Assembly: GCA_951406725.2 (NCBI GenBank)
Contig: OX597826.1
Location: forward strand, 11,718,001 to 11,782,000
Direction of reading: 5' to 3'
DNA length: 64,000 bases
DNA from: Octopus vulgaris
Lineage: Eukaryota
This document shows positions 2,298-56,535 of the stretch, one piece after another (positions within the stretch are counted from its first letter, which is position 1; every line of letters begins with the position of its first letter). The notes beneath the pieces are model-generated. The model saw nothing but the letters and a program-made list of their open reading frames with translations, had not been told where the DNA came from and ran no database searches. The translations under genes and the position numbers were made by a program.

Positions 2298-2964
2298 CGA
2301 AGGGCTTCTTTTAGTTTCCGTCTACTAAATCCACTCACAAGGCTTTATCTATTTGTAGGGACCCACAAGAACAGAATTTTCGGTGAAGTGGGGTAAGTCT
2401 ATTACATCTACTAGTATTTATTTTATCAACTCCGAAAGGAAAGGTGAAGTCGTCCTCGGCGAAATTTGAACTCAGACGGACGAAATGCTGCTAAGCATTT
2501 TGTCCGGCGTGCTAACGATTCTGCAAGCTCGCCGACTTCGTTGTTAGAAATATATCGAAACTCCAGGTTAAAAAGTAGCCTTTTACATGGATGCACAAAT
2601 TGCCAGACATAGCAAACAAAACGCCACCAAATAACATACTATTGATTAAAGAGAAAGGACAAAACATGATGGTAATTTAGTGCTGGAATCCTTATGCTTC
2701 GAAACGACCCACAAAGGAAGCCTATATATGATTACTCGACTTCCTGGAAATAACAGCTATTTCTTTGCATCTTCAATAAACACTCCACAATTTTTGTAAC
2801 AGAGATATTAACTTCGTTTTAAGTATTTGTTTAAGGATCGCAACACGGATTGATCACTGATACGGCGTTGATGAAACGATGTAATCTGACTTAAGTTAAT
2901 CCTTTGTACATTCGCTTTGCTAAGTGTTTGATTGGTTGCCTCCGTTGTTGTATGTATACTCATC

Positions 2965-3350: not shown

Positions 3351-4350
3351 GCGCTCATTGCGGCCCTTTCAGATATGCCCTCAGCTGCTCGGATAGCCAC
3401 CCTTGCTAGCTGCGCAGACGATACAAAAGTCTCGCAGACAATACAGCAGGAGTTGGACTCAATTTACAGATGGGCTGAGGATAATAATATTCAGTTTAAT
3501 TCCAAGCCCTGCGCTACCAGCGTCCAAAACTGAATATGAAACTTACAGGGTACACTGGTCCGCAGAGAACTACAATCCCAGAGCCTAAATCAGTGATGGA
3601 CCTCGGTATCGACATGAGTGATGATACCTCTTTCCAAGTGCACATCACCAGGATGGCGACAAAGTGCAGTCGACTGGCTGGCTGGATCCTGAGAACATTC
3701 AGAACCAGTGATAAGGAAACCAGGATGGTCCTCTGGAGGACATTCGTTCACAGCCGCCTGGATCACTGCCCCCAGCTATGGTCACCCAACAGTGTAAAAT
3801 TAACAGCGAATCTTGAAGCAATCCAGCGAAGATTCACGAAGAAGATCGTCTCTTTGCAACAGCTCAGCTACTGGGAAAGGCTGAAACAGTTAAGACTCTA
3901 CTCCCAGGAGCGAAGGCGGGAGAGGTATGCAGTAATATACATCTGGAAGATCCTGGAAGGAATTGTGCCAAATTTTGGCATTGAAAGCTACACCATTGCC
4001 AGAACAGGTCGACACTGCACAGTGCCAAAGATCCCAGCAATGCCATCGTGCTTTAGGACCAGTTACTGCAACAGCCTGGGTTTCAGGGGCCCACAGCTTT
4101 TTAATATTCTCCCAAAGAGTCTGAGGACTCTACACAAAGTAGATGTAGGCGTTTTTAAATCAAGGCTGGACCTCTTCTTGTCAAGAGGTCCAGATGAACC
4201 TACCTCACGGCAAGAGGTGCAAATGAGGGTAGCTACATCAAACTCCATTCTATACCAAGTGTCACATATTAGAGGAGGATCTCAGTAATAGCAGTGCAGC
4301 AAAACAGCGGTGCTCCAGCATGGCCACAGCTATGAGCTGAAACTACAACA
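3351..4350 (+). mobile_element. 5'-truncated CR1-group LINE (RT C-terminal part plus 3' UTR), frameshifted
   Basis: CADDTK (degenerate YADD), then ORF 3536-4288 with CR1-type motifs: DLGI, SRLDHCPQLWSP, LEAIQRRFTK, LSYWERLKQLRLYSQERRRER, LFNILP, FKSRLD. Confidence 0.85.
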
Positions 4351-4445: not shown

Positions 4446-4707
4446 TTGCTCAGAACGTAACAGCAGACGAAATACCTATTTCTTTACTACACACAAGGGG
4501 CCAAACATAGAAGGGACAAACAAGGACAGACAAGCGGATTAAGTCGATTACATCGACCCCAGTACGTAACTGGTACTTATTTAATCGACCCCGAAAGGAT
4601 GAAAGGCAATGTCGACCTCAGCGGAATTTGAACTCAGAACGTAACAGCACACGAAATACTGCTAAGCATTTCGCTCGGCGTGCTAACGTTTCTGCCAGCT
4701 CGCCGTC
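4446..4707 (-). mobile_element. tRNA-derived SINE family C (Nin-like central domain, Tx1-like tail)
   Basis: Head GGCGAGCTGGCAGAAACGTTAGCAC...GAGTTCAAATTCC (A/B boxes), body GTCGAC...GCCTTTCATCCTTTCGGGGTCGAT...AAGTACCAG, tail GCCCCTTGTG-GTAGTAAAGAAATAG. Confidence 0.85.
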
Positions 4708-4821
4708 TTTCCCATATTTAGTTTATTCTCTATACATGATGACTGATATCCAACCAAACTTAACTTTGTCTTTTCTCCAATGTAGATATAATTGGCATTA
4801 ATAACATATTCAGGCAAATTC

Positions 4822-9548: not shown

Positions 9549-10030
9549 CTATTTCTTTACTACCGACAAGGAGCTAAGCACGGAGAGGACAAACAAAGAC
9601 AGACAAATGGATTAAGTCGATTATATCGACCCCAGTGCGTAACTGGTACTTAATTTATCGACCCCGAAAGGATGAAAGGCAAAGTCGACCTCGGCGGAAT
9701 TTGAACTCAGAACGTTGCGGCAGACGAAATACCGCTAAGCATTTCGCCCGGCGTGCTAACGTTTCTGCCAGCTCGCCGCCTTTGAACGGAAAGACAGACG
9801 AAATACATATTTCTTTACTACCCACAAGGGGCTAAACACAGAGGGGACAAACAAGGACAGAAAAACTGATTAAGTCGATTGTAAAGACCACAGTGCGTAA
9901 CTGGTACTTATTTAATCGACCCCGAAAGGATGAAAGGCAAAGTCGACCTCGGCGGAATTTGAACTCAGAACGTAACGGCAGACGAAATGCCGCTAAGCAT
10001 TTACTCCGGTGTGTTCTGCCAGTTCGCCAC
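9549..10030 (-). mobile_element. Two head-to-tail copies of SINE family C (9549-9780, 9808-10030)
   Basis: Both match 36016-36243 in reverse complement. Confidence 0.9.
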
Positions 10031-10419
10031 TTTATTCATGACCTTTAATAATAACTGTTTCTTGTATTACCCCAAGTTCACAGATTTTGATGAGGAAAAA
10101 GCCTGCCTCGTCGATAAAATTGATCCAGTATACTGGTAGTTCTTACCGTTAATATTATTCTCCTGCGGTCAACTTATGAATCACTCTAACTATGGAATGA
10201 AATAGGAGACATAATCTATTATACATACAACGTTAATATTATTCATAAGTTAATTGATTGATAGACTATGGAACGAAACCGAAGACATAATTTATTATAG
10301 CTACAACATTTATATTATATATATGTGTGTGTATGTGTGTGTATGTGCGTGTGCGCGCGCGCATTTGTGTGTGTAAGGGAGACTGAGAGAGAGAGAGAGA
10401 GAAAGAAAGAGAGAGAGGT

Positions 10420-16191: not shown

Positions 16192-16400
16192 CTTTCTTTA
16201 TTGGCCACACAGGGCTGGACACAGAGGGGACAATTACAATGTAGAGTTTTTCATTTCGAAGATGGAAAAGGAAAAAGAAGAAAAAAAGGAAACAAATGTA
16301 AAATTTCAATCAAAAGGGATCGGAAGATGGAGTGAGACAATGTAGTCAAGAATGGAAATAGAAAATAATGGATACATTGATAAAGAAAAAAAGGAATTGG
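16191..16400 (-). mobile_element. 3'-terminal fragment of the Tx1 family, joined to (GATA)n
   Basis: ACTTTCTTTATTGGCCACACAGGGCTGGACACAGAGGGGACAA...TCAAAAGGGATCG aligns with 22303-22425; same GATA|ACTTTC junction. Confidence 0.8.
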
Positions 16401-22110: not shown

Positions 22111-22142
22111 AGAATCTCTCTCTCTTTCACTCTTTCTCTCAC

Positions 22143-22178
<36 letters not shown>

Positions 22179-22245
22179 GCTCTCTCTCTATATATATAGT
22201 GAGGAAGAGAGAGAGAAAGAGATACAGACAGACAGACAAACAGAC

Positions 22246-22296
<51 letters not shown>

Positions 22297-22610
22297 CAGA
22301 TAACTTTCTTTCTTTTATTAGCCACACAGGGCTGAATACAGAGGGGACAAATACAAATGCAGAGCTTTTCTTTTCGAGGGTGGAAAAAATAAAAAATGTA
22401 AGATTGCGATCAAAAGGGATCGAGAGGAGGAAAAAAAAAAAAAAAAAAAAGAAAATCGTGTATCACAGAAATAATGGTGTAAACATTGATATAACAAGAT
22501 TGGGTTCATCCGTGGGAAGAAAAGCCTACAGAAATGACCACGGGAACCCCAGTCAGGGAGGAAATAAACACATGAGGTCAAAAATGCTCTCTTTCTTTCT
22601 TTTTTACGAT

Positions 22611-25600
22611 CTACAGGATCATGCTCAAAATGGTTTCGTTACTAGCACGCACCATCTTTGCAACATTCACCCATCTTTTTTTGAATCTTTCGCGAGACAA
22701 AACTTCCCTCTCCATTCTCACCTTCCTTTTCAAGTGGTACTTGAAAAAGTTGATGAGCGATTGGCCAGAGAGGTAAGTGTTTGTCTCTAATCCTTTCGCT
22801 CGAGTCCACCACACACATTCTTTCACCATGGCCACCAGTACGATGAAAACTGCCTTGCCTTCCCGGTTGAGGGAAGGGGGCGGAGCAATTCTGACGATAG
22901 ACTCGGCCGATAGGCGGATTCGTCCCACACGTGACAGCAGCCGTTCGGCATAAGCCCACAGGTCGGAAATGGTTGGACATTGCACGAGTGCGTGCAGAAC
23001 GGTTTCGTCGCTCTGACCGCATCTCGGGCAAGTCGGTCCAGTGTGTCTGGAACCGTGTCTGTAGAGCTTATCCCGAACAGGTAATGCTTCTCGATAGCAC
23101 TGCCAGGCCAGGGATCTTTGGTGATTGTTCATAGGTCCCGGCCCGAAAGTTGTCCTGAACAGGCGGGTCAGGTGTTCCTCGTCGACGCCCAGACTCTGCC
23201 CGAGTTCGTCGTCGCACCTCCCCTCCACTAATCCTCTATAGAATGCCTTTGTTGTGATGGAGTCGCACAAGTTCGATCCCGGACGGCAGAGTTGCTTGAG
23301 AGCAACGCGACACTCGCGGTGCCATTCGCCTAGCCTCGGTCTCTGCTTGATCCATGACTGTAGTTCGTCCAAGGAGACGAGCTGCGGGAAAGCGCGCCGC
23401 ACAAAAGGCGACCACCCCTGTTCACCGTTGTCTATGAAGCGCCGGAGATGTCGCAGTCTCAGCGCATGTCTGCGCATCATCAACCACGGCATGCCCAGCC
23501 CTCCATTTAGCGGGTGTTGGCAGCAAATGGATCGCCTAACCATCGGAACGTTTCCCTTCCACAAGAAGCGGAAGAGTATGCGTTTCAGTTTGGTGATGGT
23601 AGGGTCGGGACAAGGCACGACGGTCAGACGATACTCGATGACGGATGCGATGTACGCGTTCGCCACCTCCGCCCGACCTTTTAGGGATAGCTTTCTCTCA
23701 GTCCATTTCTGGGTGAGAGTAGCCACCCTAGTCGTTATCTCGCCCCAGTTCTTCTCCATTTGGAGGTCCGGACCGAACCAGACCCCGAGCAATTTAACCG
23801 GTCCGTCCGTCCAGCGTCCCACGATGGAGACGCTGTTGGACGGCATGGGCTTGCTTCTCCAGTTGCCGAGCCGCAAGCCCACTGACTTTTCCCGGTTAAT
23901 TTTTGCTCCCGTTACCGCTTCGTATTCTTTCAGTGTCTCGCCGACCAGCTCGATGTGCTCGTAGCTCGACACTATGACGGTGACGTCATCCGCGTATGCA
24001 GACACGCTCCTCCCGCATCCCAGCTCTCGTGGGATGCCCCTCAGCGTCGCCAGTTTCCGCAGTAGTGGCTCAAGAGTCAGTACATACAGCAGCGATGAGA
24101 GGGGGCATCCCTGACGAACCGAACGCATGATGTTAAAAGGTCTGGATAGATGACCATTTACGCGAACTACTGAGCGGATGCCGCTGTATAAGGCAGCGAT
24201 CCAACCGCGGAAAACTGGACCGAAACCAGCCGCTTTGAGGACAGCCTCCAAGTAGTGATGGTCTACCCTATCGAAGGCTTTTGATTGATCCAAATTGATC
24301 AGCGCCCCACCCATGCCAGGATTTTTAACTACCCTGTCTATGATGTAGCGCATCAGGTGGAGGTTGTCATGAATACTTCTACCCGGCACGGCGCATGTTT
24401 GCGCCTTGTCGATTAGTTTCTTGATGACAAGCGCCAACCTCTCGGCTAACACCTTGGCCAAAATTTTCAAATCTGCGTTGAGCAGAGTGATGGGCCTGAA
24501 ATTATCTATGACGTCCCCCTTGTTTGGGTCTTTCTTGATCAGTGCCACTGCTCCTCGCTTTACAAAAGCAGGAATACTCCCGTTCTGCTGCCAGTTGCAG
24601 TAGACAGCTGCCAAGACGCCTCCAAACAAGTCTGGCATATGAAAATAAAATTCGTAGGGCAGACCATCCAGGCCTGGTGACTTATCTCTCGCGCAGCCTA
24701 CCATCGCATCCTGTACATCCGCAGCTGTGATAGGCTTTTCACAAGACTCCACCTCCCTTGCTGAGAGTCGTGGCAAGGCATGCAGGTAGGCACTAAAGTC
24801 CACTCTGCTTTCTGACTCACCACTTGTCCCAAACAGTTGGGTGAAGTGTTGTTGAAAAACCCCACACATCCTTTTAGGCTCGAGCAATTCGCGCCCCTGT
24901 TCATCTATAAGAGACTTGATGGTGGCTCTGTTGCCTCGTTGCGTCTCCACCACTCGGGCCTCTTGGGCGGCTCCAACTCCTTCGTTCCTCAGAGCACGCA
25001 TCCTAGCTCTGACAACGCATCCCTCGTGTTTGGCGTTGAGGTGTTGGTCGAGGGCCAATCTCGCCGCCAGTACGTTGGACGCGATGCCAGTTCTAAGTGC
25101 CTCTTCTAAAACCTTAACTAATTCTCCCTCTATTCTATTTCGGTCTAATGCTAGGGCTCTACTGTATCTGACTGATTCTGCTTTAATCGCTTTTTTTAGG
25201 GCATACCACCATCTGTTGTTGATGATGGTACCCGTCAAAGCTCTCTTAACTAATGTGCTGATCCGGTCCCTGTAAACCTGTCGTGCTGTAAAAGACGCGT
25301 TCAGTTTCCAGTAACCAGGACCCTGCCTATGTGTCTTATCTAAGTCAAGTGTACAAGTCACAAACTTGTGATCTGTGTAACTGACTATATGAAATTGTGG
25401 ACAACCTACACTATTTTTATCTATTGTCCTACAGAATACTCTATCTAAGTATGATCTGGACGACCCGATGCGGTTACTCCATGTCCACATTGGCACATTC
25501 GGGTGGTCCAGTCGGTACCTGTCAGACAGTTGGAAACGTCTGAGCAGGTCTTTGAGGCATTTGCATCCCCTTCTATTGCTATCTCTGCCCACGTAGTCTA

Positions 25601-26048
25601 GATGCGTGTCCAGGGTGGCATTCCAATCCCCCACTAAAAGTAAAGGACGAGACGTTCCCATGAAAGACTCTAGACGTCGAAAGAAATCTGGTCGGCCTGT
25701 TAAGGACGGAGCATAAACTGCTATCAGTCGAAAAGCACACCCATTGCTGCCATCGACATCCAAAACGACCAGCCTACCCTCCGGGTCTAGGAAATTTGCT
25801 CTTACTTTGAGATCCAGACTCTTCCGGATAAGCACCGCGGTGCCACCTCCGCCCATTCTCGGTAGACACGGAGAAAAATAAATGTTGAAATGTGTACCGA
25901 AAATGTGCTGGAGTGCCCGCAAGCTGTGGAGTCTGGTCTCACTGATGGCTATGATATTTAGATTTAGTGACTTGATGTCATTTAACAGGTAGCCTTGTTT
26001 CCAAGGCGACCCCAAGCCACGTACATTTATACTACCTATTCTGAGCAT
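22611..26048 (-). CDS. Tx1 ORF2: APE endonuclease, reverse transcriptase and C-terminal zinc motif (1145 aa from the first ATG)
   Basis: EN motifs INVRGL, ISET, VGDWN, SYLDRVF, TDH; RT motifs KSPGLDG, NFRPITLLNADLKILAK, LDQSKAFDRV, VRQGCPLS, YADD; CPRC-X8-H-X4-C. Confidence 0.95.
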   Translation of the reverse strand: MLRIGSINVRGLGSPWKQGYLLNDIKSLNLNIIAISETRLHSLRALQHIFGTHFNIYFSPCLPRMGGGGTAVLIRKSLDLKVRANFLDPEGRLVVLDVDGSNGCAFRLIAVYAPSLTGRPDFFRRLESFMGTSRPLLLVGDWNATLDTHLDYVGRDSNRRGCKCLKDLLRRFQLSDRYRLDHPNVPMWTWSNRIGSSRSYLDRVFCRTIDKNSVGCPQFHIVSYTDHKFVTCTLDLDKTHRQGPGYWKLNASFTARQVYRDRISTLVKRALTGTIINNRWWYALKKAIKAESVRYSRALALDRNRIEGELVKVLEEALRTGIASNVLAARLALDQHLNAKHEGCVVRARMRALRNEGVGAAQEARVVETQRGNRATIKSLIDEQGRELLEPKRMCGVFQQHFTQLFGTSGESESRVDFSAYLHALPRLSAREVESCEKPITAADVQDAMVGCARDKSPGLDGLPYEFYFHMPDLFGGVLAAVYCNWQQNGSIPAFVKRGAVALIKKDPNKGDVIDNFRPITLLNADLKILAKVLAERLALVIKKLIDKAQTCAVPGRSIHDNLHLMRYIIDRVVKNPGMGGALINLDQSKAFDRVDHHYLEAVLKAAGFGPVFRGWIAALYSGIRSVVRVNGHLSRPFNIMRSVRQGCPLSSLLYVLTLEPLLRKLATLRGIPRELGCGRSVSAYADDVTVIVSSYEHIELVGETLKEYEAVTGAKINREKSVGLRLGNWRSKPMPSNSVSIVGRWTDGPVKLLGVWFGPDLQMEKNWGEITTRVATLTQKWTERKLSLKGRAEVANAYIASVIEYRLTVVPCPDPTITKLKRILFRFLWKGNVPMVRRSICCQHPLNGGLGMPWLMMRRHALRLRHLRRFIDNGEQGWSPFVRRAFPQLVSLDELQSWIKQRPRLGEWHRECRVALKQLCRPGSNLCDSITTKAFYRGLVEGRCDDELGQSLGVDEEHLTRLFRTTFGPGPMNNHQRSLAWQCYREALPVRDKLYRHGSRHTGPTCPRCGQSDETVLHALVQCPTISDLWAYAERLLSRVGRIRLSAESIVRIAPPPSLNREGKAVFIVLVAMVKECVWWTRAKGLETNTYLSGQSLINFFKYHLKRKVRMEREVLSRERFKKRWVNVAKMVRASNETILSMIL

Positions 26049-26090
26049 GTTCCGATAAAAGTGCAAAAAAGGAAAAGGAGAGAGAAAAGG

Positions 26091-28256
26091 TTACTTGTTT
26101 TCCGAAAGTTCTTTGTCTTTCACCTCACGGTCTTCTTCTATGAGGCTTTTATACAGTTTTTTCGATGAGTACTTTTGAAATCTCCCTACTGCATCAGGGT
26201 AAAGAGATTTCAGGGTGCTGTATGTGTTCTGTGTCACGTGTATTATTTTAATGTGTTGTGGTGGTGTTGTGTGTGGGTGGTTACTTGTTTTTATGTCGTT
26301 TTCAGTAATGTTAGTGTTTGACCTAATGTGTTCCATTAGGTCGTGGTTGTTTGTGTTTATGGCTGTCAACATTTTTGGGGGGTTTGATGATGGTGTGTTT
26401 GTGTTGATGTGTGTTTTTTCTGTGGATGTTTTTGTTTCGGGAGTGGTATATCTTCCCGCTTTGTTTGTTATTTTTTCTTTTCTTTTTTTTCCCCTTTTTC
26501 TTCTCCCCCCTGTGGCTATTTGCCAATCTTCCGTGTCTTCTTCGTCTAATGACAGATCAGACGAATCGGAGTCTGGAAGAGGGAAAGTATTGGGGTCTAT
26601 TGTCGACTGTGTTGGTTTTGTTGTTGGTGTTGGTTGGTGAGCGTTTGGTTGTGGTGTGTGCGGTTTTGGATGTGGGGTTTGGGTATTTTGTGTTTGAGTG
26701 ATTGTGGGTATTGTTGTGTTGTTTAGGGTCTCAATTTTGTGGGGATTTGGAGTTGTAATTGTTTCTTCATTTTTGCTGGGTGTCTTTTTGGCAGATGTCC
26801 TTGGTTTGGGAGTTGGTATATTCTTGGTTGTTGTTGTTGGTGATGCTGCTTCTGTTCTTGGTGCTGCAGTTGGTGTGGTTGTTTGTTTGGTGAGGTTTGT
26901 TCCTGCAAAAAGTGGTGTGGGTAGTAAACCTTGTTTATTTGTTTTTGTTTCCGGCTGCTGTTGTTGTTGCTGTTGTTTTCTTGCGGCAGATTTGCAGTCT
27001 TTTTTGAGGTGTTGCTCACTGCCGCATATGTAGCAACGTGGTCTTCTGCCATCGACGACCACATATAACTTGTGGTCGTCTGATACACATATCTGGGTGG
27101 GTATTTTTTTTATATCTTCATGATGTATATGTAGAAGAAATTCTATTTTTCTTCCCACCCAGTTTTTATGCTCTGTGACTGTGGTTTCCAAAATAGTATA
27201 ATTCGCCATTTTTATGCATAAGGCCTTTACAAGCCATAGACTATTGGCTATTTTGGGGACATTGTTTAGAGTGATCTTAGTCACTTTCTGTCCCCGATAG
27301 CTTGGTGTAAGTTGGAGTTCATCTGAGTGAAGAGTTAGCGTTGAGAAATGTCTAGCTAACTCTTCGGTGTAGAAAACGACTTGTATGTGGGCAAATTTGT
27401 TCCACCAGGTTACATATTCTTTATGATCCCAGATGGGTTTCAAGCACTTCTCTATTTTGCTTGTGTTGGCCTTCTCTGGGATTTTTGTTTTTTTGTTAAC
27501 TATTTTATAAATGATTGTTCGTCTTTTTTCATTTTCCAAAATATCTTCTGGTATGTTTATTTTTACTATACCTTCTGATTCTGTTATTTTGATGTTCGTG
27601 TCCTGTATTTGTTGAGCCGTAAAGTATATTGTTGTTTTTTTTTCTTTAATCGCCTCAGCGAAATTTGTTGTTGTTTTGTTATTGTTGTTGCTTGTGGTGA
27701 TGTTGTTGTTGGCTGCAGTTTGTAAAATTGGTGTGTTTGGTTCGATCGTGCAAGTAGGAAGGGGTGGAAAATTGCCTGCGTACTTTAGTCCTGCACTAGG
27801 GCAAAATTCGACATTTCGTTTGCTTGTCGTCGTTATTTTTTCACTTGTTGGTGATGGAGTGAGCAGTGGTTGAAGGGAATTGTTGTTGTCGTCGTTGTTG
27901 TTGTTGTTGTTGTTGTTGTTATTGTCGTTCTTGGTGACGGCGGTGGTGTTGGTAGTATTAGTAGCATTGACGGCACGGTCTTTGGTGGCGGTGATGGTGA
28001 TGTTGGTGTTGTTATTGGTGGCGATATCTTTAGTAGGGATAGCAGTTTTAGTAGCAGATTCTGCCATGGTGTTGGTGGTGGTGGTGGACTCACTGATGGT
28101 GTTGACGGTGCTTGGCCTTGCGACCTTTGTTTTGTATTTGTTGCTGTTGGTGGTGGTGGAGTTGTCAGGTTCGGCGTATGCTAACAGAGCATACTGTTTT
28201 TCTGTTTCTGCGTCACGCTTCACTTGCAACTCAGCCTCGTGGTGGCCAGTGGCCAT
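26091..28256 (-). CDS. Tx1 ORF1 (gag-like, zinc knuckle; 721 aa from the first ATG)
   Basis: Open frame; zinc knuckle CYICGSEQHLKKDC; Thr/Asn/Pro-rich low-complexity ends; basic patch WQIATGGRRKRGKKRK; lies directly upstream of ORF2. Confidence 0.9.
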   Translation of the reverse strand: MATGHHEAELQVKRDAETEKQYALLAYAEPDNSTTTNSNKYKTKVARPSTVNTISESTTTTNTMAESATKTAIPTKDIATNNNTNITITATKDRAVNATNTTNTTAVTKNDNNNNNNNNNNDDNNNSLQPLLTPSPTSEKITTTSKRNVEFCPSAGLKYAGNFPPLPTCTIEPNTPILQTAANNNITTSNNNNKTTTNFAEAIKEKKTTIYFTAQQIQDTNIKITESEGIVKINIPEDILENEKRRTIIYKIVNKKTKIPEKANTSKIEKCLKPIWDHKEYVTWWNKFAHIQVVFYTEELARHFSTLTLHSDELQLTPSYRGQKVTKITLNNVPKIANSLWLVKALCIKMANYTILETTVTEHKNWVGRKIEFLLHIHHEDIKKIPTQICVSDDHKLYVVVDGRRPRCYICGSEQHLKKDCKSAARKQQQQQQQPETKTNKQGLLPTPLFAGTNLTKQTTTPTAAPRTEAASPTTTTKNIPTPKPRTSAKKTPSKNEETITTPNPHKIETLNNTTIPTITQTQNTQTPHPKPHTPQPNAHQPTPTTKPTQSTIDPNTFPLPDSDSSDLSLDEEDTEDWQIATGGRRKRGKKRKEKITNKAGRYTTPETKTSTEKTHINTNTPSSNPPKMLTAINTNNHDLMEHIRSNTNITENDIKTSNHPHTTPPQHIKIIHVTQNTYSTLKSLYPDAVGRFQKYSSKKLYKSLIEEDREVKDKELSENK

Positions 28257-28475
28257 TTTGGAAATAAAATGGCTAAATGAAACCACGAAGGCTATGAGAA
28301 TTTTTTCTTTAAAATTTTGCCCACAAGGGGCAAAATTTTGTGTCGATATTTATCAAAGGTTTACAGTGGATGTTGTTGCACAACTTTTAAGCACAAAATG
28401 TTTGTCAATATACACTTTTAAATAGTCAAAATAAATGATTACCTTCGGAGCTGAAACGACATCACATCCGTCAAT

Positions 28476-28537
28476 AGAGAGAGAGAGAGAGAGAGACAGA
28501 TAGACAGACAGACAGATAGATAGATAGATAGATAGAG

Positions 28538-28607
<70 letters not shown>

Positions 28608-28631
28608 GTAGGTAGGTAGGTAGGTAGGTGG

Positions 28632-28708
<77 letters not shown>

Positions 28709-28725
28709 TGATAGATAGATAGATA
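28476..28725. repeat. (GA)n/(GACA)n/(GATA)n microsatellite, 5' flank of the Tx1 element
   Basis: Directly visible. Confidence 0.95.
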
Positions 28726-29689
28726 AGTGCATTATTCGTTCCGTGGGAAGAACCTGAATAAATCCGAGTCTTTTCTTCTTGCCAATCATTGACTGTCATC
28801 AGTTGAAATACTTGGAGTCTTTCTTAAAAATTTAACAAGCTAATCATATTTTTATTTTTGAGAAAAACCACGACGTAAATTCACAGAATAACCACTCTCT
28901 CCGCTAACCATTCTCTCCGACGCTCTCTTCAAGGAGTGTTGCGTGTCAGTAAAGAAATATATATATATAGTAGGGATTCTACCAATTTCTTCTTGAACAT
29001 CTCGTTTTCTATTGGCACGACCTAGCAACAAGCTCTAACTTGTGGATCCAGCTCTTGGGTGATGGCACTGGTAGGCTTGCTAAACCTGGCTGAATACTCG
29101 TTAGAATGTGTTTTTCATGTTTATCATCCTACATAAAGACTGAATTTCGACAAAATGTCGAAACTTAAATATCAGTGATTATTTTCGATAGGACGAAGTA
29201 CCTTATCCACCAATGTTGCAAAAGGTTACTTGCCTCACAGCACAGTGTGAAACATTTTGTCTTGGTATTTTAACTCATTCCTGATACATTTTCCAGTCGT
29301 CTCGGCTGTCTTCCTACAGGCCAAGGAAGTCAAGGGTGAGAGATTAAAGCTGATCGTCTGGTTCAGCCTTTTGCTTTATTATAATTCAAGAGCAGTGCTT
29401 GTCAAAACTAGAACTTCTTGGGGCCATAAACAAAGGAGAACTTTCATACCAATAAGGGCTAGTGCCCCTTTCTCACTCATGAGAGCACACGGAAGGATTT
29501 AGAATGAGTAGAAACAGTTATATTTTGTACGAACACCTGCGCGGATACTTTTTTGATTTCTGACAATCATAAAAATATACCATGGGCTTCTAAGAGTTGC
29601 TGCCTTAGTTATCTTCTAAAATTAGAAAGAAAAGGACCAGTGTATGTACATGCGTGTATACAAATGTCTGTAGATATACATATGTGTAG

Positions 29690-32360
29690 GTTCCCCAATG
29701 GAGAAGTTCTTAAGCAGATCAGGCCGAAAATGTCGCTAGAAGCTAGGATCACCAAGCATAGATTGGCATATTTCGGTCATATTATGCGAAGAAAATCCCT
29801 GGAGAAGGACATCATGCTCGGAATGGTCAGTGGCAAGAGAGGAAGAGGCTGACCAAGAACCGGCTGGCTTGACACCATCAAAAGTGATGTTAGTTAGTTA
29901 GTTAGTTAATTTTTTGGCTCAAAAAGCAAAAAGCAAGGCCATGTAGGGGGACATGGAGTTATGTACAGGGTGGTGTTCATGTAAAGAGTTCAGGCCACTT
30001 GTGGTCAAGGGAGACTTTGAACCGAGCGGTCGTCGGCATCTTCACCATCTCGTCTGGCAGCTTATTCCACGGATCCGCAACCCGGACGGAGAAAGCCCTC
30101 TCCTTCAATTGAGATGAAATCGTCGCAGAGAGAGCTTTTCGGAATGACCCCGCAGCCGACGCTCTGGAGCAGGAGTGAAGAACAGCTCTTTCGAGAGGTT
30201 ACACTTTCCGCTTATGATGTGAGCAAGAATGAGATCTCTACGGCGTCGTCGTTTTTCTAGAGAATAAAGGTCGAGCGTCTTCAGCCTTTCTTCATAAGAC
30301 AAATTCTTGAGACCAAGAACCATGCGGGTAACCAGCTTCTGGACTCTTTCGAGATGCTGTATGTCTTTGAGGAGATAAGGAGAAGAGGCTTGAATCCCGT
30401 ACTCCAATATGGGTCTCACCAGCGTGACATAAAGCGGTAGGAATATGGCTGCTGTGAGCATTCCGAATGACCGTCGAATCAAGAACAGAATTCCGCGTGC
30501 TTTGTTGGCAGCATGGACGCACTGGGACGAAGGCGAAAAGGAGGAATCCACCAAGATACCCAGGTCCTTTACCTGATCGGTCCTCTCCAGCAGCAGACGA
30601 CCCGGCTCGAAATCAAGTTGAGTTGCAGGAGGAGAGCCAACAGGCAGATGACAGCACTTTGACACGTTCAGACACAGGTCCCATTCGTTAGACCATCTCC
30701 AAATTTGGTGGAGGCGGAAGATCCTCTATATCACCGCGAGGAGCGACCAGTTTGACATCGTCGGCAAATAGAAGGGTGTGTTGCGTGAGGTCGTCGGGCA
30801 AGTCATTTATGAAGACTAAGAACAATAAGGGCCAAAGCACTGAACCTTGAGGCACGCCACTGATCGCACTGGAGACGTCGGACCGCGAACCATTAACTTG
30901 AACTTGGAAGGAGCGATCTGAGAGGAAGGCACCAACCCATCGTACAATATCCGGATGGAAACTATATGCTTGAAGCTTGACAAGTAATAGGCGGTGGTTT
31001 ACCGAGTCAAAAGCTTTAGCAAAGTCCAATAAAACGATGTCAACAGCATCACTATCATCGAGGATGCGCGTCACCAATTCTTCCATTACCAGTAAGTTGG
31101 TCAAGCATGATCTCTTCGGCACGAAGCCGTGTTGAGAATCAGAGATAGAGGCTGTGTTTTGGAGGTGGAGAATCATACTTTTCTTAAGGATGGTTTCGAA
31201 CATCTTGCTGATTATTGATGTAAGGGAAACCGGTCAGTAGTTAAGCGGGTCTTCGCGGCTCCCTTTCTTGAAAATTGGGCAGATTATCGCTGTTCTCCAG
31301 TCCGCAGGTATAACACCCGTCGTCAATGACATATTGAATAGACGTGTTAAGGGCTCGCAGATGACCGGAGCCAACGCTTTGATAACCTGTGGGTGTATGC
31401 CGTCAGGGCCGTGACCCTTGTTGACAACGAGGCCTTGAATAACGCGTTCGACTTCGTCCCGCGTGATGACCAATCGAAGCATTGGAGGTACCGATCTATC
31501 AAATGGAGGGGGTTCGCGACCATCATCTTGTTTGAAAATAGTTGAAAATGCCTCGGCAAATAATTGACTCTGTTGATAAGGGTCCTCAATCGATACGCCT
31601 GTTGAGTCTACCAACGTTGCAATTTGGTTGTTCAAACGGAAATTCCGTTGGACATGGGCAAAGAAAGTTTTTGGATTGCTACTGGCGTTTGCCGCGATTT
31701 TGTATTCATATCTGAAGCGTTCTTCTTTTTCCATTTTCACGGCTCGGTCTCGTTGAGTTTTGTACACCTCAAAAGCTGCAGTCTAATCCAGATTTTTGAA
31801 TTCAGCCCAAGCAATATCTCTGAGCCGAAGCTCTCGTTTAACCTTCTTCGTCACCCAGGGCTTGTGTTTCTTCTTCTTGGGAAGCCCAACGGGAACTGCC
31901 TGGTCAGTCAACCAGATTACATATGCTTTAAGGGATGACCATAGTTCGTCAACTGAGGACAACGTCATCAGGGAACGCCAGTCCAGAAGCGCGGAAGCCT
32001 CGGTTAGAATTTCAAGATTAATTGCAGAGAAGACTCTACGTGGCAGCGAAGTAGTCGTGAGCGTAGAAAAAGTTGTGTGCATGACGAACTTCAGGACCGC
32101 ATGATCACTCTTGGCAAGAGGGGCGCACACAGATACGTCTGACACTGATCTTGGATAGCGGGAGAATACAAGATCCAGCATAGATGGCTGCTGCCCAGAC
32201 CGATGCCTTGTCGGATATTCAACATGTTGCGATAGAAAACAATCTTCAGCCGGAATGGACATAGCCAATCTGAAAGAAGTGGCCCAAGATAGAACTGACT
32301 GGAGGACACTGATCCAACGAGTAACCGAGAGTCGACTTCGACTGAGCGGATAGGTAGATA
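29690..32360 (+). mobile_element. RTE-type 3' fragment split by the CR1 insertion (parts 29690-29888 and 32249-32360)
   Basis: RLAYFGHIMRRKSLEKDIMLGMVSGKRGRG...WLDTIKSD continues in frame after the insert as AGMDIANLKEVAQDRTDWRTLIQRVTESRLRLSG*. Confidence 0.8.
29889..32248 (-). mobile_element. 5'-truncated CR1-clade LINE (end of EN plus RT), frameshifted, (TAAC)n tail
   Basis: SDHAVL, KGHGPDGIHP, PLNY, QHGFVPKRSCLTNLL, LDFAKAFDSV, GVPQGSVL, LFADD, LVRPILEY, LERVQK, spread over ORFs 30105-32379. Confidence 0.9.
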
Positions 32361-32449
32361 GATTTATGCACACACTCACACATAAACAGACGCAAACACA
32401 CAGACATATACATATTCATCCATCTTTTCTACCCAATATTCTTAGCATT

Positions 32450-35204: not shown

Positions 35205-36803
35205 TTATTGAAAAACAGTCATATCATCGTCCTCTTGAATGTCATTGTGCTGCAAATCACTGGATTCCAAAATTCCTGCGAAGTTTTCGTGTGACTCCAT
35301 TTCCTGCAGAACATTTGTCCGCAATCTTTCATGTCGAGCAATAGCGGTCTCATTGAATGGGAAGTTCTTGTCTAGGTAGCCTGCTCGTAGTGCATTGGCA
35401 ACACAGCTGTCTGTGATTTTGTTCCATGAATTCGTCTCCCAAGTCACGATCTCTTGCAGGCCGGGTTTCACAAAATTTCCACGCTGATTTCTCACCATTT
35501 TGTTTTCAATGTAGTCATCGATTTCCATGTGTAAAGGGTCCTTAAATGATTTATTTATTGCATTTTCAATAGTTTGGAGATAGGCAGTCATTCCTGCAGG
35601 AATAAAGATTTGATCTATTCTTCTTTTTGCATAGAAGTTCTTCATGTCTTTTGCGCGGTGCATGCAGGCTGGACTATCAGACCTCTTTGGCCTCCTCACA
35701 AAATAAGCGGCAGCAGGAAATCGATCCACTTCCTTAAAACTGCCTGTATGCACCAAACCTTTTCAGTTTCCAGAACACTGATGCTTGAAACGCGTTCAAT
35801 TATATCCTTCCTTTAAAGATGATTGGAGATGGAGCTTTACTTCCGCCGAGACAAATTGCCAAAATATATCTAACTCGTGCGCTTTCGTAACCCCTGGAGG
35901 GAATGTAGATTGACAACGCACCCCTTTGATCTATAGTCAGTTGAGATCCTTGGCATGTGAAAACTGCAATTTCATCAATTGCAATCATGTTGGAGAGACG
36001 GTATTTAGTAAAGTCGGCGAGCTGGCAGAAACGTTAGCACGCCGGGCGAAATGCTTAGCGGTATTTCGTCTGCAGTTACATTCTGAGTTCAAATTCCGCC
36101 GAGGTCGACTTTGCCTTTCATCCTTTCGGGGTCGATTAAATAAGTACCAGTTACGCACTGGGGTCGATATAATCGACTTAATCTGTTTGTCTGTCCTTGT
36201 TTGTCCTCTCTGTATTTAGCCCCTTGTGGGTAGTAAAGAAATAGGTATTTAGTAAAGTCTTTGCCATCAACAAAGGACTTAAATGCAAGTACATGTTTAA
36301 TAATCTCGGTATCTTCCGGTTTGAAAAGTGTTGTCAGCCCTCTCATAGAAAGTTCATGTCACTGAAGGAAATCATCCAGCCAGTGTTATGATGCTCTGAA
36401 TTCTTCTGAAAATATACCAATACCAAACTGTGGTGCATTTGCGAGGGCAAATGCTTGAATATCCGTCCTGCTAACAACCAAAGCCATTACTCTCCTGTGA
36501 GCAACCCATTCACAAATGAAGCCTTCCAGCTCAGAAAATAGTGGTTGCCGACCTGATCCACACTTGCGTTTCTTTGCAGTTCCCACGTCCACTTGTTGAC
36601 TGAGTTTATCGTAGTCTACTCGCCAATTTCGAACCATTCGCGTGATCCAAATTCTTTTCTTTGCAGTAAACAGTAAGATTCTTGCCCAGTGATTGCTGCA
36701 CGATTCCTTTCATGTACTCAATGGAATAACGCTTTCTTTTTGCACTCATCTTGTCTAGGGGTAGAAGTGACTTGACAAATGATTTCCCATTCAATTTCAT
36801 CAT
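35205..36803 (-). pseudogene. pogo-family transposase pseudogene (HTH, CENP-B HTH and DDE domains)
   Basis: KRKRYSIEY; GSGRQPLFSELEGFICEWV...IQAFA...FRAS; IAIDEIAV; FIPAGMTAYLQTIENAINKSFKD; split by frameshifts and a SINE. Confidence 0.85.
36016..36243 (+). mobile_element. Complete SINE family C copy with 16-bp TSD
   Basis: GGTATTTAGTAAAGTC at 36000-36015 and 36244-36259. Confidence 0.92.
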
Positions 36804-36991: not shown

Positions 36992-37859
36992 CCTCGGTCC
37001 AGACCTCCAGATAGAGAAGAATTGGAGTGAGGTTACAAGCAGGTGGAACTTCTTAACCAGACCTGGTCTGGGCGCAGGCTATCCCCGAAAGGGAGGGTGG
37101 AGGTTGCAAATGTGTTTATCGCATGTGCAATCACCTACCACCTAACCGTCATGCCTTGCCCAGATTAGTGGCTAAGCAAGTTGGAGGCTGAGGCATCTTT
37201 GGCTCTACTTAGATGGTTGTGTTGCCGAGGAACCTTACCAGTTCGAGAAAACTCGCCAGGCACAGCTCTTCATGCCCTAGATGCACACAGAGCAGTGAAA
37301 CTGTTCTGAATGCAATTGTGCAGTGTCCGAAACCATCGGAATTGTGGGTTTATGTTGAACAACTGCCGTCACGTTTGGAAAGAGTGCAACTGTCCTCTGA
37401 GTCTATAATAAGGATTGATTCTCCGCCCTCTCTGAACAGGGAAGGGAGGGTTTGTTTTTCTATCTGTGGTGGCTGTAGAAAAAGAGGTTGTGTGGAGGAC
37501 ACGCATGTAAGGTTTAGTTGACAGGCATCTTTCTTCATCTCCAGCCTCGGTTTAGTAAACTTTTTTTATTTTCCATCTTAAAAGGAAAATAAACTCAGTA
37601 CATATGAGAAAAGATGGAAGAAAGTGGCAACCGTGTTGAGAGTGAATGTGCCTGCTTAAGGGAGACATAAAATTCTCTTAAAAGGTTCAGTGGAGGAATG
37701 TGGTTTGTGGGGTCGCATCCGTCCTTCACTCCATCATCATCATCATCATCCAATTTTATATATCATCATAAATTTTTAATCTTGTCATCCCATTCGATCC
37801 CCCGACCCCTTCGTCTATCCTCTCGTTGTCTACCTTTATGGTAAATAAAAAAAAATCAG
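36992..37859 (+). mobile_element. Diverged 5'-truncated Tx1-family copy with ~13-bp TSD
   Basis: LGPDLQIEKNWSEVTSR and CPRCTQSSETVLNAIVQCP...PPSLNREG match the ORF2 C-terminus; TTATTT(T)TTAGCCG at 36978-36991 and 37860-37872. Confidence 0.85.
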
Positions 37860-47012: not shown

Positions 47013-47648
47013 AACAAGTTGAACACTGGGGTTGATATTATCGACTCGTTCCTCCCCCCCCCGAACTTGCTGGCCTTGTGCCAAAATTTGAAATCCTCCT
47101 CCTCCTCATTATTATTATTACTATTAATGAGGTATTGATGTAAACCTTCACTGTGTCCTGTCCTAGGAGCCTCCCCCGTTGCCTTTAAGCACCTGTGGCT
47201 AACAAAGATGTTGGCAGACTCGTTAGAGTGTCCGACGGAATGCTTAGCAGCATTTCTCCTGGCTTTTTACATTTCTGAGTTCAAATCCAACCGAAGTCAA
47301 CTTTGTCTTTCATCCTTTCGAGGTCGATAAAATAGAGTTGATGTCATCGACCAACCGCTTTCCTTCCTACAATTGCTTGCCCTGTGTCAAAATTTGAAAC
47401 AATTATTATTTTATGAAAGAAAGGCAGTGGATTGATAGAATTGCTGGGGCGTCGGGTCAAATGCTTTGCGGTATATACTTACTGCACTTTACGCATTAAG
47501 TTCAAATCTTGCCTATTACACCTCGGGACTCGATGTAATAAAGCATCAGCCAAATATTGGGCTCGATTTAATCGACTAATCTCTCACCTGTCGAAATTGC
47601 TAATCACCCTACTAAATTACAAATAGTATATATATATATATATATATA

Positions 47649-53224: not shown

Positions 53225-53897
53225 TAGTGGGACATATTTGAGCTTTGTACAACATCCTTTACATAACAAAATTAAATTATTTCTAGAAACATCCAGACTA
53301 GGAAAATGTGTCAGACTTTATTTTTCCCAATTAAAATAGTCACTAAGTAACAAACTAAGCTACTGTTGATACCTTAACACTAAAAAATACAGCAAAAAGA
53401 ATTTTAAATTCATATGCTTTAAGTTAATAACTTTGTTGAAATTGTATTTTACTTTAACAGTTTCAAAATTTTTTTTTATTAAAAAGTAAAGCGGAATTAA
53501 GTGTGACATAATTAAATGTGTTAAAAGCCATTTAGAGAGGCTTATCAGTATATAAACCTTAGTTTATTTGCAGTAAGCTTCTTAAGATATTAGTTTCCTA
53601 CCACATATATCAAACAATACAATAAATCCAATTTATTTTTTTCTAGTAGGCTGTTGCATTTATAATTTCAGTTAGGCTATGAGCAACAGAATAATGTATT
53701 TGTCAAATTTAGACTATTTATATAAGTTGTGTAAGAGAGTAGACTCTCTGACAAATTTCAAATTGATTTTTTTAGATCTAAGATCTTTATTTACCACTTT
53801 TGGAATCATATTTCTTATAAGACACCTATGTACTTCAATTAATTTTAAAAACAAAGGATTTGATTAGATTTAGTAAAATAACTAGATATTATCTAAG

Positions 53898-54295
53898 GGA
53901 GTCAGCTGGCAGAATCTTTAGCATGCCAGGCAAAATGATGCTAGGCATTTTGCCTATCTTTACGCTCTGAGTTGATAAAATAAGTACCAGTATAAGACTG
54001 GGGTCAATGTAATTGACTTATCCTCTCCCCCCAAATTGCTGGCTTTGTGCGAAAATTTGAAATCACTATTAAGTTACTGTAAGGTGGTGAGCTAGCAGAA
54101 TCATTTGCATGCTGAGCAAAAAGCTTTTCAGTATTGCGTTCGTCTCTTTGTTCTGAGTTCAAATTTTGCTGAGGTCCATTTTGCGTCTCATCCTTTTAGA
54201 AGCAATAAAATAAATACCAGTTGAGCACCGGGGTTAGATTGACTTATCCCCTGCCCTGAAATTGCTGGCCTTGTGCCAAAATTTGAAATCCGTAT
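53898..54295 (+). mobile_element. Two decayed SINE family C-like copies with the alternative tail
   Basis: GAGCTGGCAGAATC heads, AAGTACCAG body, tail AAATTGCTGGCCTTGTGCCAAAATTTGAAATC. Confidence 0.7.
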
Positions 54296-54416
54296 TAAGT
54301 TGCTGTCTTACTTAAAATTATATTGAAATATAATTAAAATAAAAAATCTAAATGAGAGGTTGTATAACAACCAGAAGCAGTCACAAAAGTGCTAAATATG
54401 TTATATATATATATAT

Positions 54417-55725: not shown

Positions 55726-55956
55726 TGTTTCTTTATTACCCACAAGGGGCTAAACATAGAGGGGACAAACAAGGACAGACAAAGGGATTAAGTGGATTAA
55801 TTCGACCCCAGTGCGTAACTGGTACTTAATTTATCGACCTCGAAAGGATGAAAGGCAAAGTCGACCTCGGCGGAATTTGAACTCAGAACGTAACGGCAGA
55901 CGAAATACCGCTAAATATTTCGCCCGGCATGCTAACGATTCTGCCAGCTCGCCGCC
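55726..55956 (-). mobile_element. SINE family C copy with 17-bp TSD
   Basis: TACAAGTAAAGTATTCC at 55709-55725 and 55959-55975. Confidence 0.92.
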
Positions 55957-56535
55957 TATACAAGTAAAGTATTCCGTCTCTCCATCAGGAGTGATCACTT
56001 TTGCTCTGATGTTCTCATACAGCTTACTTATTGCTCTCAGAATTCTCGGTGGAATGCTTTAAGTATCTTCATCATCATTCCTCTATGTACCGAATCAAAA
56101 GTAAATGACACCTTTAGTTGAATAAGTATCACGTGTACCAAAGTACATCCAGTAAAAAATTTCAGCTTGTGTTTGCAGAGAATTTAACCCTTATGAATAT
56201 TTTAAGAGCCTACATTGTGTTTATTGTATTCCAGCAGACATTTTTGAATAGATTAATTAGAACATTACATTAGATTAATTAGTACATTACATGATAACTA
56301 AAAAAAGACAAAAAAAATTCTTCAGATGATACAAAACATTTCTAACAATATAAGAACAATATTTGACCACAGTGTTGTTCCTACAGTGTTTGGAATGTTA
56401 TTTATCATCTGCAGAAAATGGGTTTTTTTTTTTAGTTCTGCTGTAATATACTCATTAATCTATTTAAAATATCTGCTAGAAACAGCTATAATGAAGTGAC
56501 ACTTATCCTTCGTTTGTTATTTATTTGTGCATATA

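Follow-up and report, generated by a model that had tools for sequence, protein, structure and literature searches.

A SINE located within the 64-kb window analysed here (a single stretch of 64,000 nucleotides of Octopus vulgaris DNA) ends in nearly the same bases as an intact L1/Tx1-type retrotransposon lying in the same window, which raises the question of which LINE family copies this SINE and where the copies are placed. The SINE tail at 36200-36241 on the plus strand and the retrotransposon 3' end at 22351-22309 on the minus strand agree in 36 of 43 bases (within-window E 2.6e-6), with a z of about 8-9 against dinucleotide shuffles and none of 500 shuffles equalling the match. The alignment between SINE tail and Tx1 3' terminus proposed in the first-pass annotation is therefore upheld, and the homology covers the last ~45 bases of the two elements. 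Related tails occur in two more LINE 3' ends that the first-pass annotation had missed (16192-16322 and 36993-37857), and no match was found between the SINE tail and the remaining LINE fragments. As had been proposed, the tail recurs in four more SINE copies of the window, all on the minus strand (Table 1), and target site duplications (TSDs) of 16-17 bp flank two copies, with 16 bp at the plus-strand copy and 17 bp at one of the minus-strand copies. The SINE was also described as very abundant, and a genome-wide count of an exact 25-base tail pattern gave 101,264 matches. Derivation of the tail from L1/Tx1-type elements stands as well, as the tail is common to a radiation of L1/Tx1-type families. 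In short, the first interpretation was based on a real observation and named the right clade, and the family is wrong. Three further features were annotated at 35205-35762 (-), 30105-32415 (-) and 3500-4288 (+), namely a DDE_1 transposase fragment adjoining the SINE and two broken reverse transcriptase-bearing LINE fragments of another type respectively.

Table 1. Annotated features of the SINE copies, the family A retrotransposon and related elements in the window.
Feature	Positions	Strand	Remarks
SINE copy under study	36016..36243	+	~50-nt head start, then 184-nt body-plus-tail unit 36060-36243
LINE-derived SINE 3' tail, without poly(A)	36196..36243	+	small predicted hairpin with CTTGT loop, 36219-36231
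16-bp TSD, 5' copy	36000..36015	+	GGTATTT at its start
16-bp TSD, 3' copy	36244..36259	+	downstream of SINE 36016..36243
SINE copy, AATAAA tail variant	55726..55958	-	17-bp TSD 55975-55959 / 55725-55709
SINE copy, first of stack	9808..10034	-	next to it 24 nt similar to the SINE target site, and another full copy after these
SINE copy, second of stack	9550..9783	-	stacked insertion
SINE copy with self-target junction	4477..4710	-	tail leads into SINE body for 28 nt (4476-4449)
3' end, 5'-truncated, of a related family in the A group	16192..16322	-	related tail, then (TATC)n
Old, broken piece of a further family in the radiation	36993..37857	+	ORF2 C-terminus, diverged tail
Family A, full-length L1/Tx1-type retrotransposon inside (TATC)n array	22303..28472	-	
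Family A ORF1	26091..28256	-	720 aa from ATG, open; weak zinc-knuckle match
Family A ORF2	22611..26048	-	1145 aa, open; AP endonuclease, RT, zf-RVT
Family A 3' tail	22303..22355	-	A/B-type hairpin, CTGTGT loop
12-bp hairpin in family A 5' UTR	28311..28339	-	folding against shuffles z -3.7
(TATC)n array 5' of family A	28473..28729	-	
Degenerate TATC/TC microsatellite 3' of family A	22115..22302	-	

The SINE is a short, non-coding and very repetitive element with a 231-bp monomer and a LINE-derived tail. TSDs of 12-24 bp, most commonly 16 bp, were found in 43 of the 69 units whose junction is not with a SINE and whose head lies as far away as expected. The head contains A and B box-like motifs and a 5-bp terminal stem and folds as one long hairpin; searches of it with ARAGORN and Rfam returned no tRNA and no RNA family. 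When the body was set by eye, unaligned, against the Nin domain sequences that the supplement of PMC4758252 shows, a short 5' resemblance to these printed sequences was observed and their conserved core was not seen, so that the Nin-like label of the first-pass annotation could not be upheld as confirmed. The median divergence of the SINE is 6.2% from consensus (n=184, one pooled consensus). An older form sharing the head and body and carrying another tail with an AT-rich repeat end was observed at 53897-54300 (+), 47212-47400 (+) and 2410-2538 (-), as well as at loci L058 and L035-L037, and a short stem capped by a CTTGT loop is present in its tail too.

The retrotransposon of the window belongs to family A (the letters A to E are labels of the present analysis). 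A CCHC zinc knuckle is a feature of Tx1-clade ORF1 proteins, and the zf-CCHC match in the ORF1 of family A (E 0.0026, 18.2 bits) lies below the Pfam cut-off of 20.8. Three Pfam domains exceed their cut-offs in ORF2 (PF03372, PF00078 and PF13966), and the best match of this protein in the PDB is human L1 ORF2p (E 1e-60), with R2 at E 3e-20. The only named homologue comes from Argonauta hians and is 65% identical, and none of the homologue names carries a clade label. Among the best 30 genome copies, which were fetched out of 40 scored and 1803 candidates, TATC repeats occur at the end of all 29 copies other than that of the window, and the closest copies are 0.6% from consensus, a value biased towards young copies by selection on similarity. 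This family is young and specific to (TATC)n. The claim that an intact partner LINE is present in the window holds for its first half, as both ORFs are open, whereas the partner role does not agree with the target, the hairpin type or the age of the element. The stem top and CTTGT loop of the perfect hairpin in the 5' UTR of family A (28311-28339) equal those of the 3' hairpin of the SINE and of families C and D rather than those of family A's own 3' hairpin.

A genome search found a common tail without poly(A) in families A, B, C and D, in a set of ORF1-only elements and in older fragments. Family B, with an ORF2 72% identical to that of A, always occurs in (ATT)n (30 of 30 copies, by eye), while the ORF2 of family C is 56-57% identical to that of A and this family has intact copies, 5.3-kb trains and varied targets, with GGTATTT after the end in none of 30 copies inspected by eye. 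Together with TATC for family A and a site within the SINE for family D (27 of 29 copies), these make up the target preferences observed, a preference for particular target sequences being a trait of the Tx1 clade. Family B (L145-L176) was also seen to be young and intact, to form 5.87-kb tandem trains and to be often inserted in ATT runs adjoining SINEs, and its 5' hairpin resembles that of family A with a different loop. The ORF1-only elements are 1.67 kb long and encode 442 aa that are 28% identical to family A ORF1; a zinc knuckle, a C/D-type tail and head-to-tail trains were observed in them (L178-L190, L202-L204), and a 3.6-kb tandem unit bearing their tail occurs at L192-L197. HAL1 elements are ORF1-only derivatives of L1, and the octopus elements can be likened to them, by description and not by sequence, in having ORF1 alone; they carry the tail hairpin of the SINE and of families C and D, and differ in being arranged in head-to-tail trains.

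Tail similarity alone does not identify the partner among these families. The local scores against the SINE consensus are 68 for A, 67 for D, 66 for C, 75 and 72 for two C variants and 47 for B, with z values of 8-10 for the homology of A, C and D. Since the tails of A, C and D score nearly equally, raw similarity picks no partner and the tail sequence by itself does not single out D. The scores do not single out A either, as both C variants exceed it. A clearer division was found in the hairpin, where the third pair is C-G and the loop CTTGT in the SINE, C, D and the ORF1-only elements (CTAGT in one C copy), and the third pair is G-C in the A and B groups (13 tails compared). The 3-4-bp stem is present in all 13 tails, with one compensatory C-G/G-C swap which falls between the clades. 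This division coincides with the split in a quick ORF2 tree (20 rows, midpoint root) where C and D group with an SH-aLRT of 100 and A, B, P0001 and P0002 with 89, and five copies of family D are 59-67% identical to C and 47-53% to A. The stability of the SINE tail hairpin was not greater than that of shuffles (z -0.8 and -0.5). RNAalifold on an automatic tail alignment recovered two pairs, none of them compensatory, as the two types of hairpin do not share a register.

A LINE joined to the SINE's own site was found through junction patterns. All 30 loci fetched with a first pattern, out of 744, were SINEs, and a second pattern gave one LINE (L300) among 30 fetched of 196. A DNA search with the 3' part of L300, the junction being excluded, then defined family D (30 fetched and 40 scored, of 715). 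Out of the 30 fetched copies, 28 end at the SINE GGTATT(T) (26 assigned automatically and two by eye; 27 of 29 without the seed) and two are without the tail. GGTATTT lies at SINE head position 51, and the same base is joined by family D and by the SINE. In two full-length copies (L367 and L376) the SINE head lies upstream and the TSD is 14 bp long. The hosts of family D comprise 18 older-tail SINEs, seven SINEs with the Tx1-type tail and two that are unclear. The median divergence of family D is 4.9% from consensus (n=28) and overlaps that of the SINE (6.2%, n=184), although these ages are rough since the family sets were chosen by similarity to one copy. The SINE and family D share the insertion target and the hairpin type and overlap in age. 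None of 20 extended loci holds an intact family D copy. At one locus (L354), the 3' UTR of a family D element passes straight into the end of a SINE-type tail, which may reflect template switching or recombination between LINE and SINE.

Genome-wide, two bases and then GGYATTT come after 35,902 of the 101,264 SINE tails, so that about two thirds of the tails lie outside this site whereas family D sits there almost always. The junctions were classified in 184 units of the fetched loci, from which the central units of junction-selected loci were dropped; stacked neighbours were kept, which inflates the first class. SINE body position 51 accounts for 83 of these junctions and SINE head position 19 for 11, while 20 are at other GGTAT and 17 at other GG sequences, 24 at AGA/GA, six at TA, 23 elsewhere and none at TATC. 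Among the 43 TSDs, a pyrimidine precedes the TSD at -1 in 34, and +2 is a purine in 41, +3 is A or T in all 43 and +4 is A in 34. The upstream TSD copy carries the Y/RRWAT motif in loose form, and the motif is thus pre-existing target sequence. The SINE head forms a long inverted repeat (z -2.7) with position 51 at its tip, and full-length SINE copies with a TSD were found inside older SINEs split at this position (L033 and L041). Stacked 184-bp neighbours differ by a median of 8.2% (69 pairs) against 9.8% for random pairs, as expected for separate insertions, whereas 11 of the 69 neighbours are no more than 4% apart (7 of 400 random pairs), which indicates that some stacks are duplications. 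Judged from these sequence comparisons, the stacks are mostly separate insertions with some duplications. The junction class also tracks the tail subtype, with GTAG-type tails mostly at GGTAT and CAAT-type tails mostly at AGAA, head position 19 being among these sites. That position (AGAAACG) is often the junction of tails of the CAATAAA subtype (L060, L062, L117 and L122) and constitutes another self-target, for which no LINE partner was found among the families sampled. Insertions of the SINE were additionally observed in another abundant SINE family, where the TAGC/GGT site is similar (L039, near 2286 on the minus strand, and L081).

These observations favour a reading in which the SINE tail is homologous to a target-preferring L1/Tx1-type radiation and the SINE is probably copied by proteins of the C/D clade and not mainly by family A. 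Target-primed reverse transcription is an established mechanism. In the proposed scheme, the ORF2 of C/D-clade elements would bind the poly(A)-less tail hairpin of the SINE RNA, the endonuclease would nick pyrimidine/GGTAT-like sites and target-primed reverse transcription would then insert the SINE. About a third of the tails would lie in the SINE head because the best GGTAT-like site is found there, and D-like proteins are likely to place the SINE into its own head. A cDNA that reaches template bases 51-65 could pair with the identical TSD overhang, and frequent annealing of the 5' end in this manner would produce exact 184-bp stacks with a rebuilt intact head. Other families of the radiation, including the A group, likely pick up the SINE at lower rates, which would account for the minor junction classes; these classes suggest that several families share the SINE as a passenger. 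The exact donor of the tail may be an unsampled or extinct family.

The first-pass annotation had named the window's own Tx1 family as the element mobilising the SINE, and family A is indeed intact and recently active with a tail that scores on par with that of D against the SINE (68 and 67). The insertion targets disagree with this proposal, as TATC is present at the end of all 29 other A copies but at only ~130 of the 101,264 SINE tails, near the chance level of 116. The figure of ~130 is extrapolated from 70 distinct loci among the 100 listed of 186 matches to (TATC)3 within 8 bases of the SINE tail, and that of 116 is from a rough background of 1.48 Mb on both strands of the fetched loci. 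The hairpin of family A is of the other type, and a check of ages places its closest copies at 0.6% from consensus against 6.2% for the SINE. A pattern combining family-A-like upstream sequence with the SINE hairpin gave 24 genome matches, all of them SINEs. Even so, 63 of the 70 distinct SINE-in-TATC loci listed are in the register seen at A-group junctions, where 24 of 28 show it, and A-group proteins thus likely mobilised a few copies, though mobilisation of the SINE by this group is likely to be rare. As the main partner, family A or its TATC-targeting group is very unlikely and has been largely refuted already.

Two other explanations concern the site and the tail rather than the family. 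Site choice might be set mostly by RNA-DNA pairing, in which read-through RNA of a stacked copy (GGUAUUU...) pairs with the nicked target and any family of the radiation could serve. The association between junction class and tail subtype fits this explanation, and Kojima, citing others, notes in the portion of PMC4494074 used here that targeting can gain strength from co-transcription with target RNA. The pyrimidine 5' of the TSD (34 of 43) is part of the target motif and yet lies outside any pairing with read-through RNA, and the autonomous family D, which joins the same base, is the simplest source of a cutter for the GGTATTT site; we consider this explanation unlikely. It is still less plausible, to the point of being barely tenable, that the tail is a captured relic, that the 184-bp stacks are tandem duplications at the DNA level and that the SINE is moved by another LINE clade. 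Private variants are common to the units of some stacks (four units at C1:224.51 Mb) and the older SINE form carries a different tail on the same head and body, but SINE insertions stop exactly at the tail with TSDs of 12-24 bp, most neighbouring units are as different as random ones and full-length copies with a TSD occur inside older SINEs at position 51 (L033 and L041). We therefore retain copying by the C/D clade as the preferred reading. Its extension, that an animal Tx1 lineage recognises a poly(A)-free tail stringently and that the endonuclease evolved in one of its branches targets the head of the very SINE carried as a passenger, in a self-feeding LINE-SINE loop, has in our estimate about an even chance of being correct.

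In the literature searched, neither a SINE sharing its tail with an animal Tx1 element nor a LINE targeting its own SINE was found, although Repbase, Dfam and SINEBase may already hold these families. The pairing had been called unusual, and this agrees with the available portions of two surveys (Ohshima 2012, PMC3472496; 2013, PMC3747384), where three SINEs with L1-clade tails are given among 58 SINE-LINE pairs (PMC3472496), none of them animal. As described there, ZmSINE2/3 with LINE1-1_ZM in maize and sorghum and SINEX-3_CR with L1-1_CR in Chlamydomonas resemble the octopus pair in sharing an L1-group tail of ~45-50 nt with a putative hairpin, which is kept across diverged LINE families. 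They differ in being plant or algal and in having no target specificity or self-targeting described in those portions, whereas the octopus pair is animal.

The crocodilian SINEU is linked to Tx1-Mar through the target alone, and a shared 3' end was not found (Kojima 2015, PMC4494074, consulted in part for this and the following comparisons). Mobilisation by Tx1 was there inferred, as in the octopus, from the same insertion sites in another repeat, with tandem insertions at the target. SINEU however ends in poly(A) and targets Mariner, while the octopus SINE shares the LINE tail, has no poly(A) and targets itself. Families A in (TATC)n and B in (ATT)n are comparable to Kibi, Koshi and the crocodilian microsatellite Tx1 families, although the repeat units differ. 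Family D, found at one site in another transposable element, resembles Xenopus Tx1L in Tx1D, a likeness by target and not by tree placement, but here the host is a SINE that bears the tail of the LINE itself. Stringent L2/CR1/RTE pairs, including bivalve SINEs, likewise have in common a short 3' tail whose stem-loop ORF2 is believed to bind, as far as the excerpts used of PMC4824008 and PMC4176376 go; the octopus pair differs in its LINE clade, its long TSDs and the absence of a 3' tandem repeat of its own. The "TX1" of PMC4176376 was rejected as a reference to the clade, as the name denotes mutants in the excerpt used. For octopus, the consulted part of one repeat annotation lists L1-Tx1 and leaves the SINEs mostly unclassified, without a tail analysis (PMC13282606), and tRNA-Core and tRNA-Deu figure as the main SINEs in that of another study (PMC8967140).

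The wider significance lies in how L1-group proteins choose their substrates. Elements of this group are thought mostly to recognise poly(A), and a Tx1 radiation that lacks poly(A), shares one tail, uses several targets and includes intact members offers a direct test of the choice of RNA and DNA by L1-group ORF2. The same radiation bears on whether stringent recognition is the ancestral state. If the proposed loop is true, each SINE copy would be both cargo and a new landing pad, and this would lie behind the 100,000-copy expansion. A LINE whose target is its own SINE would also be able to insert without hitting genes, and such feedback would be one way to the large SINE load seen in octopus genomes.
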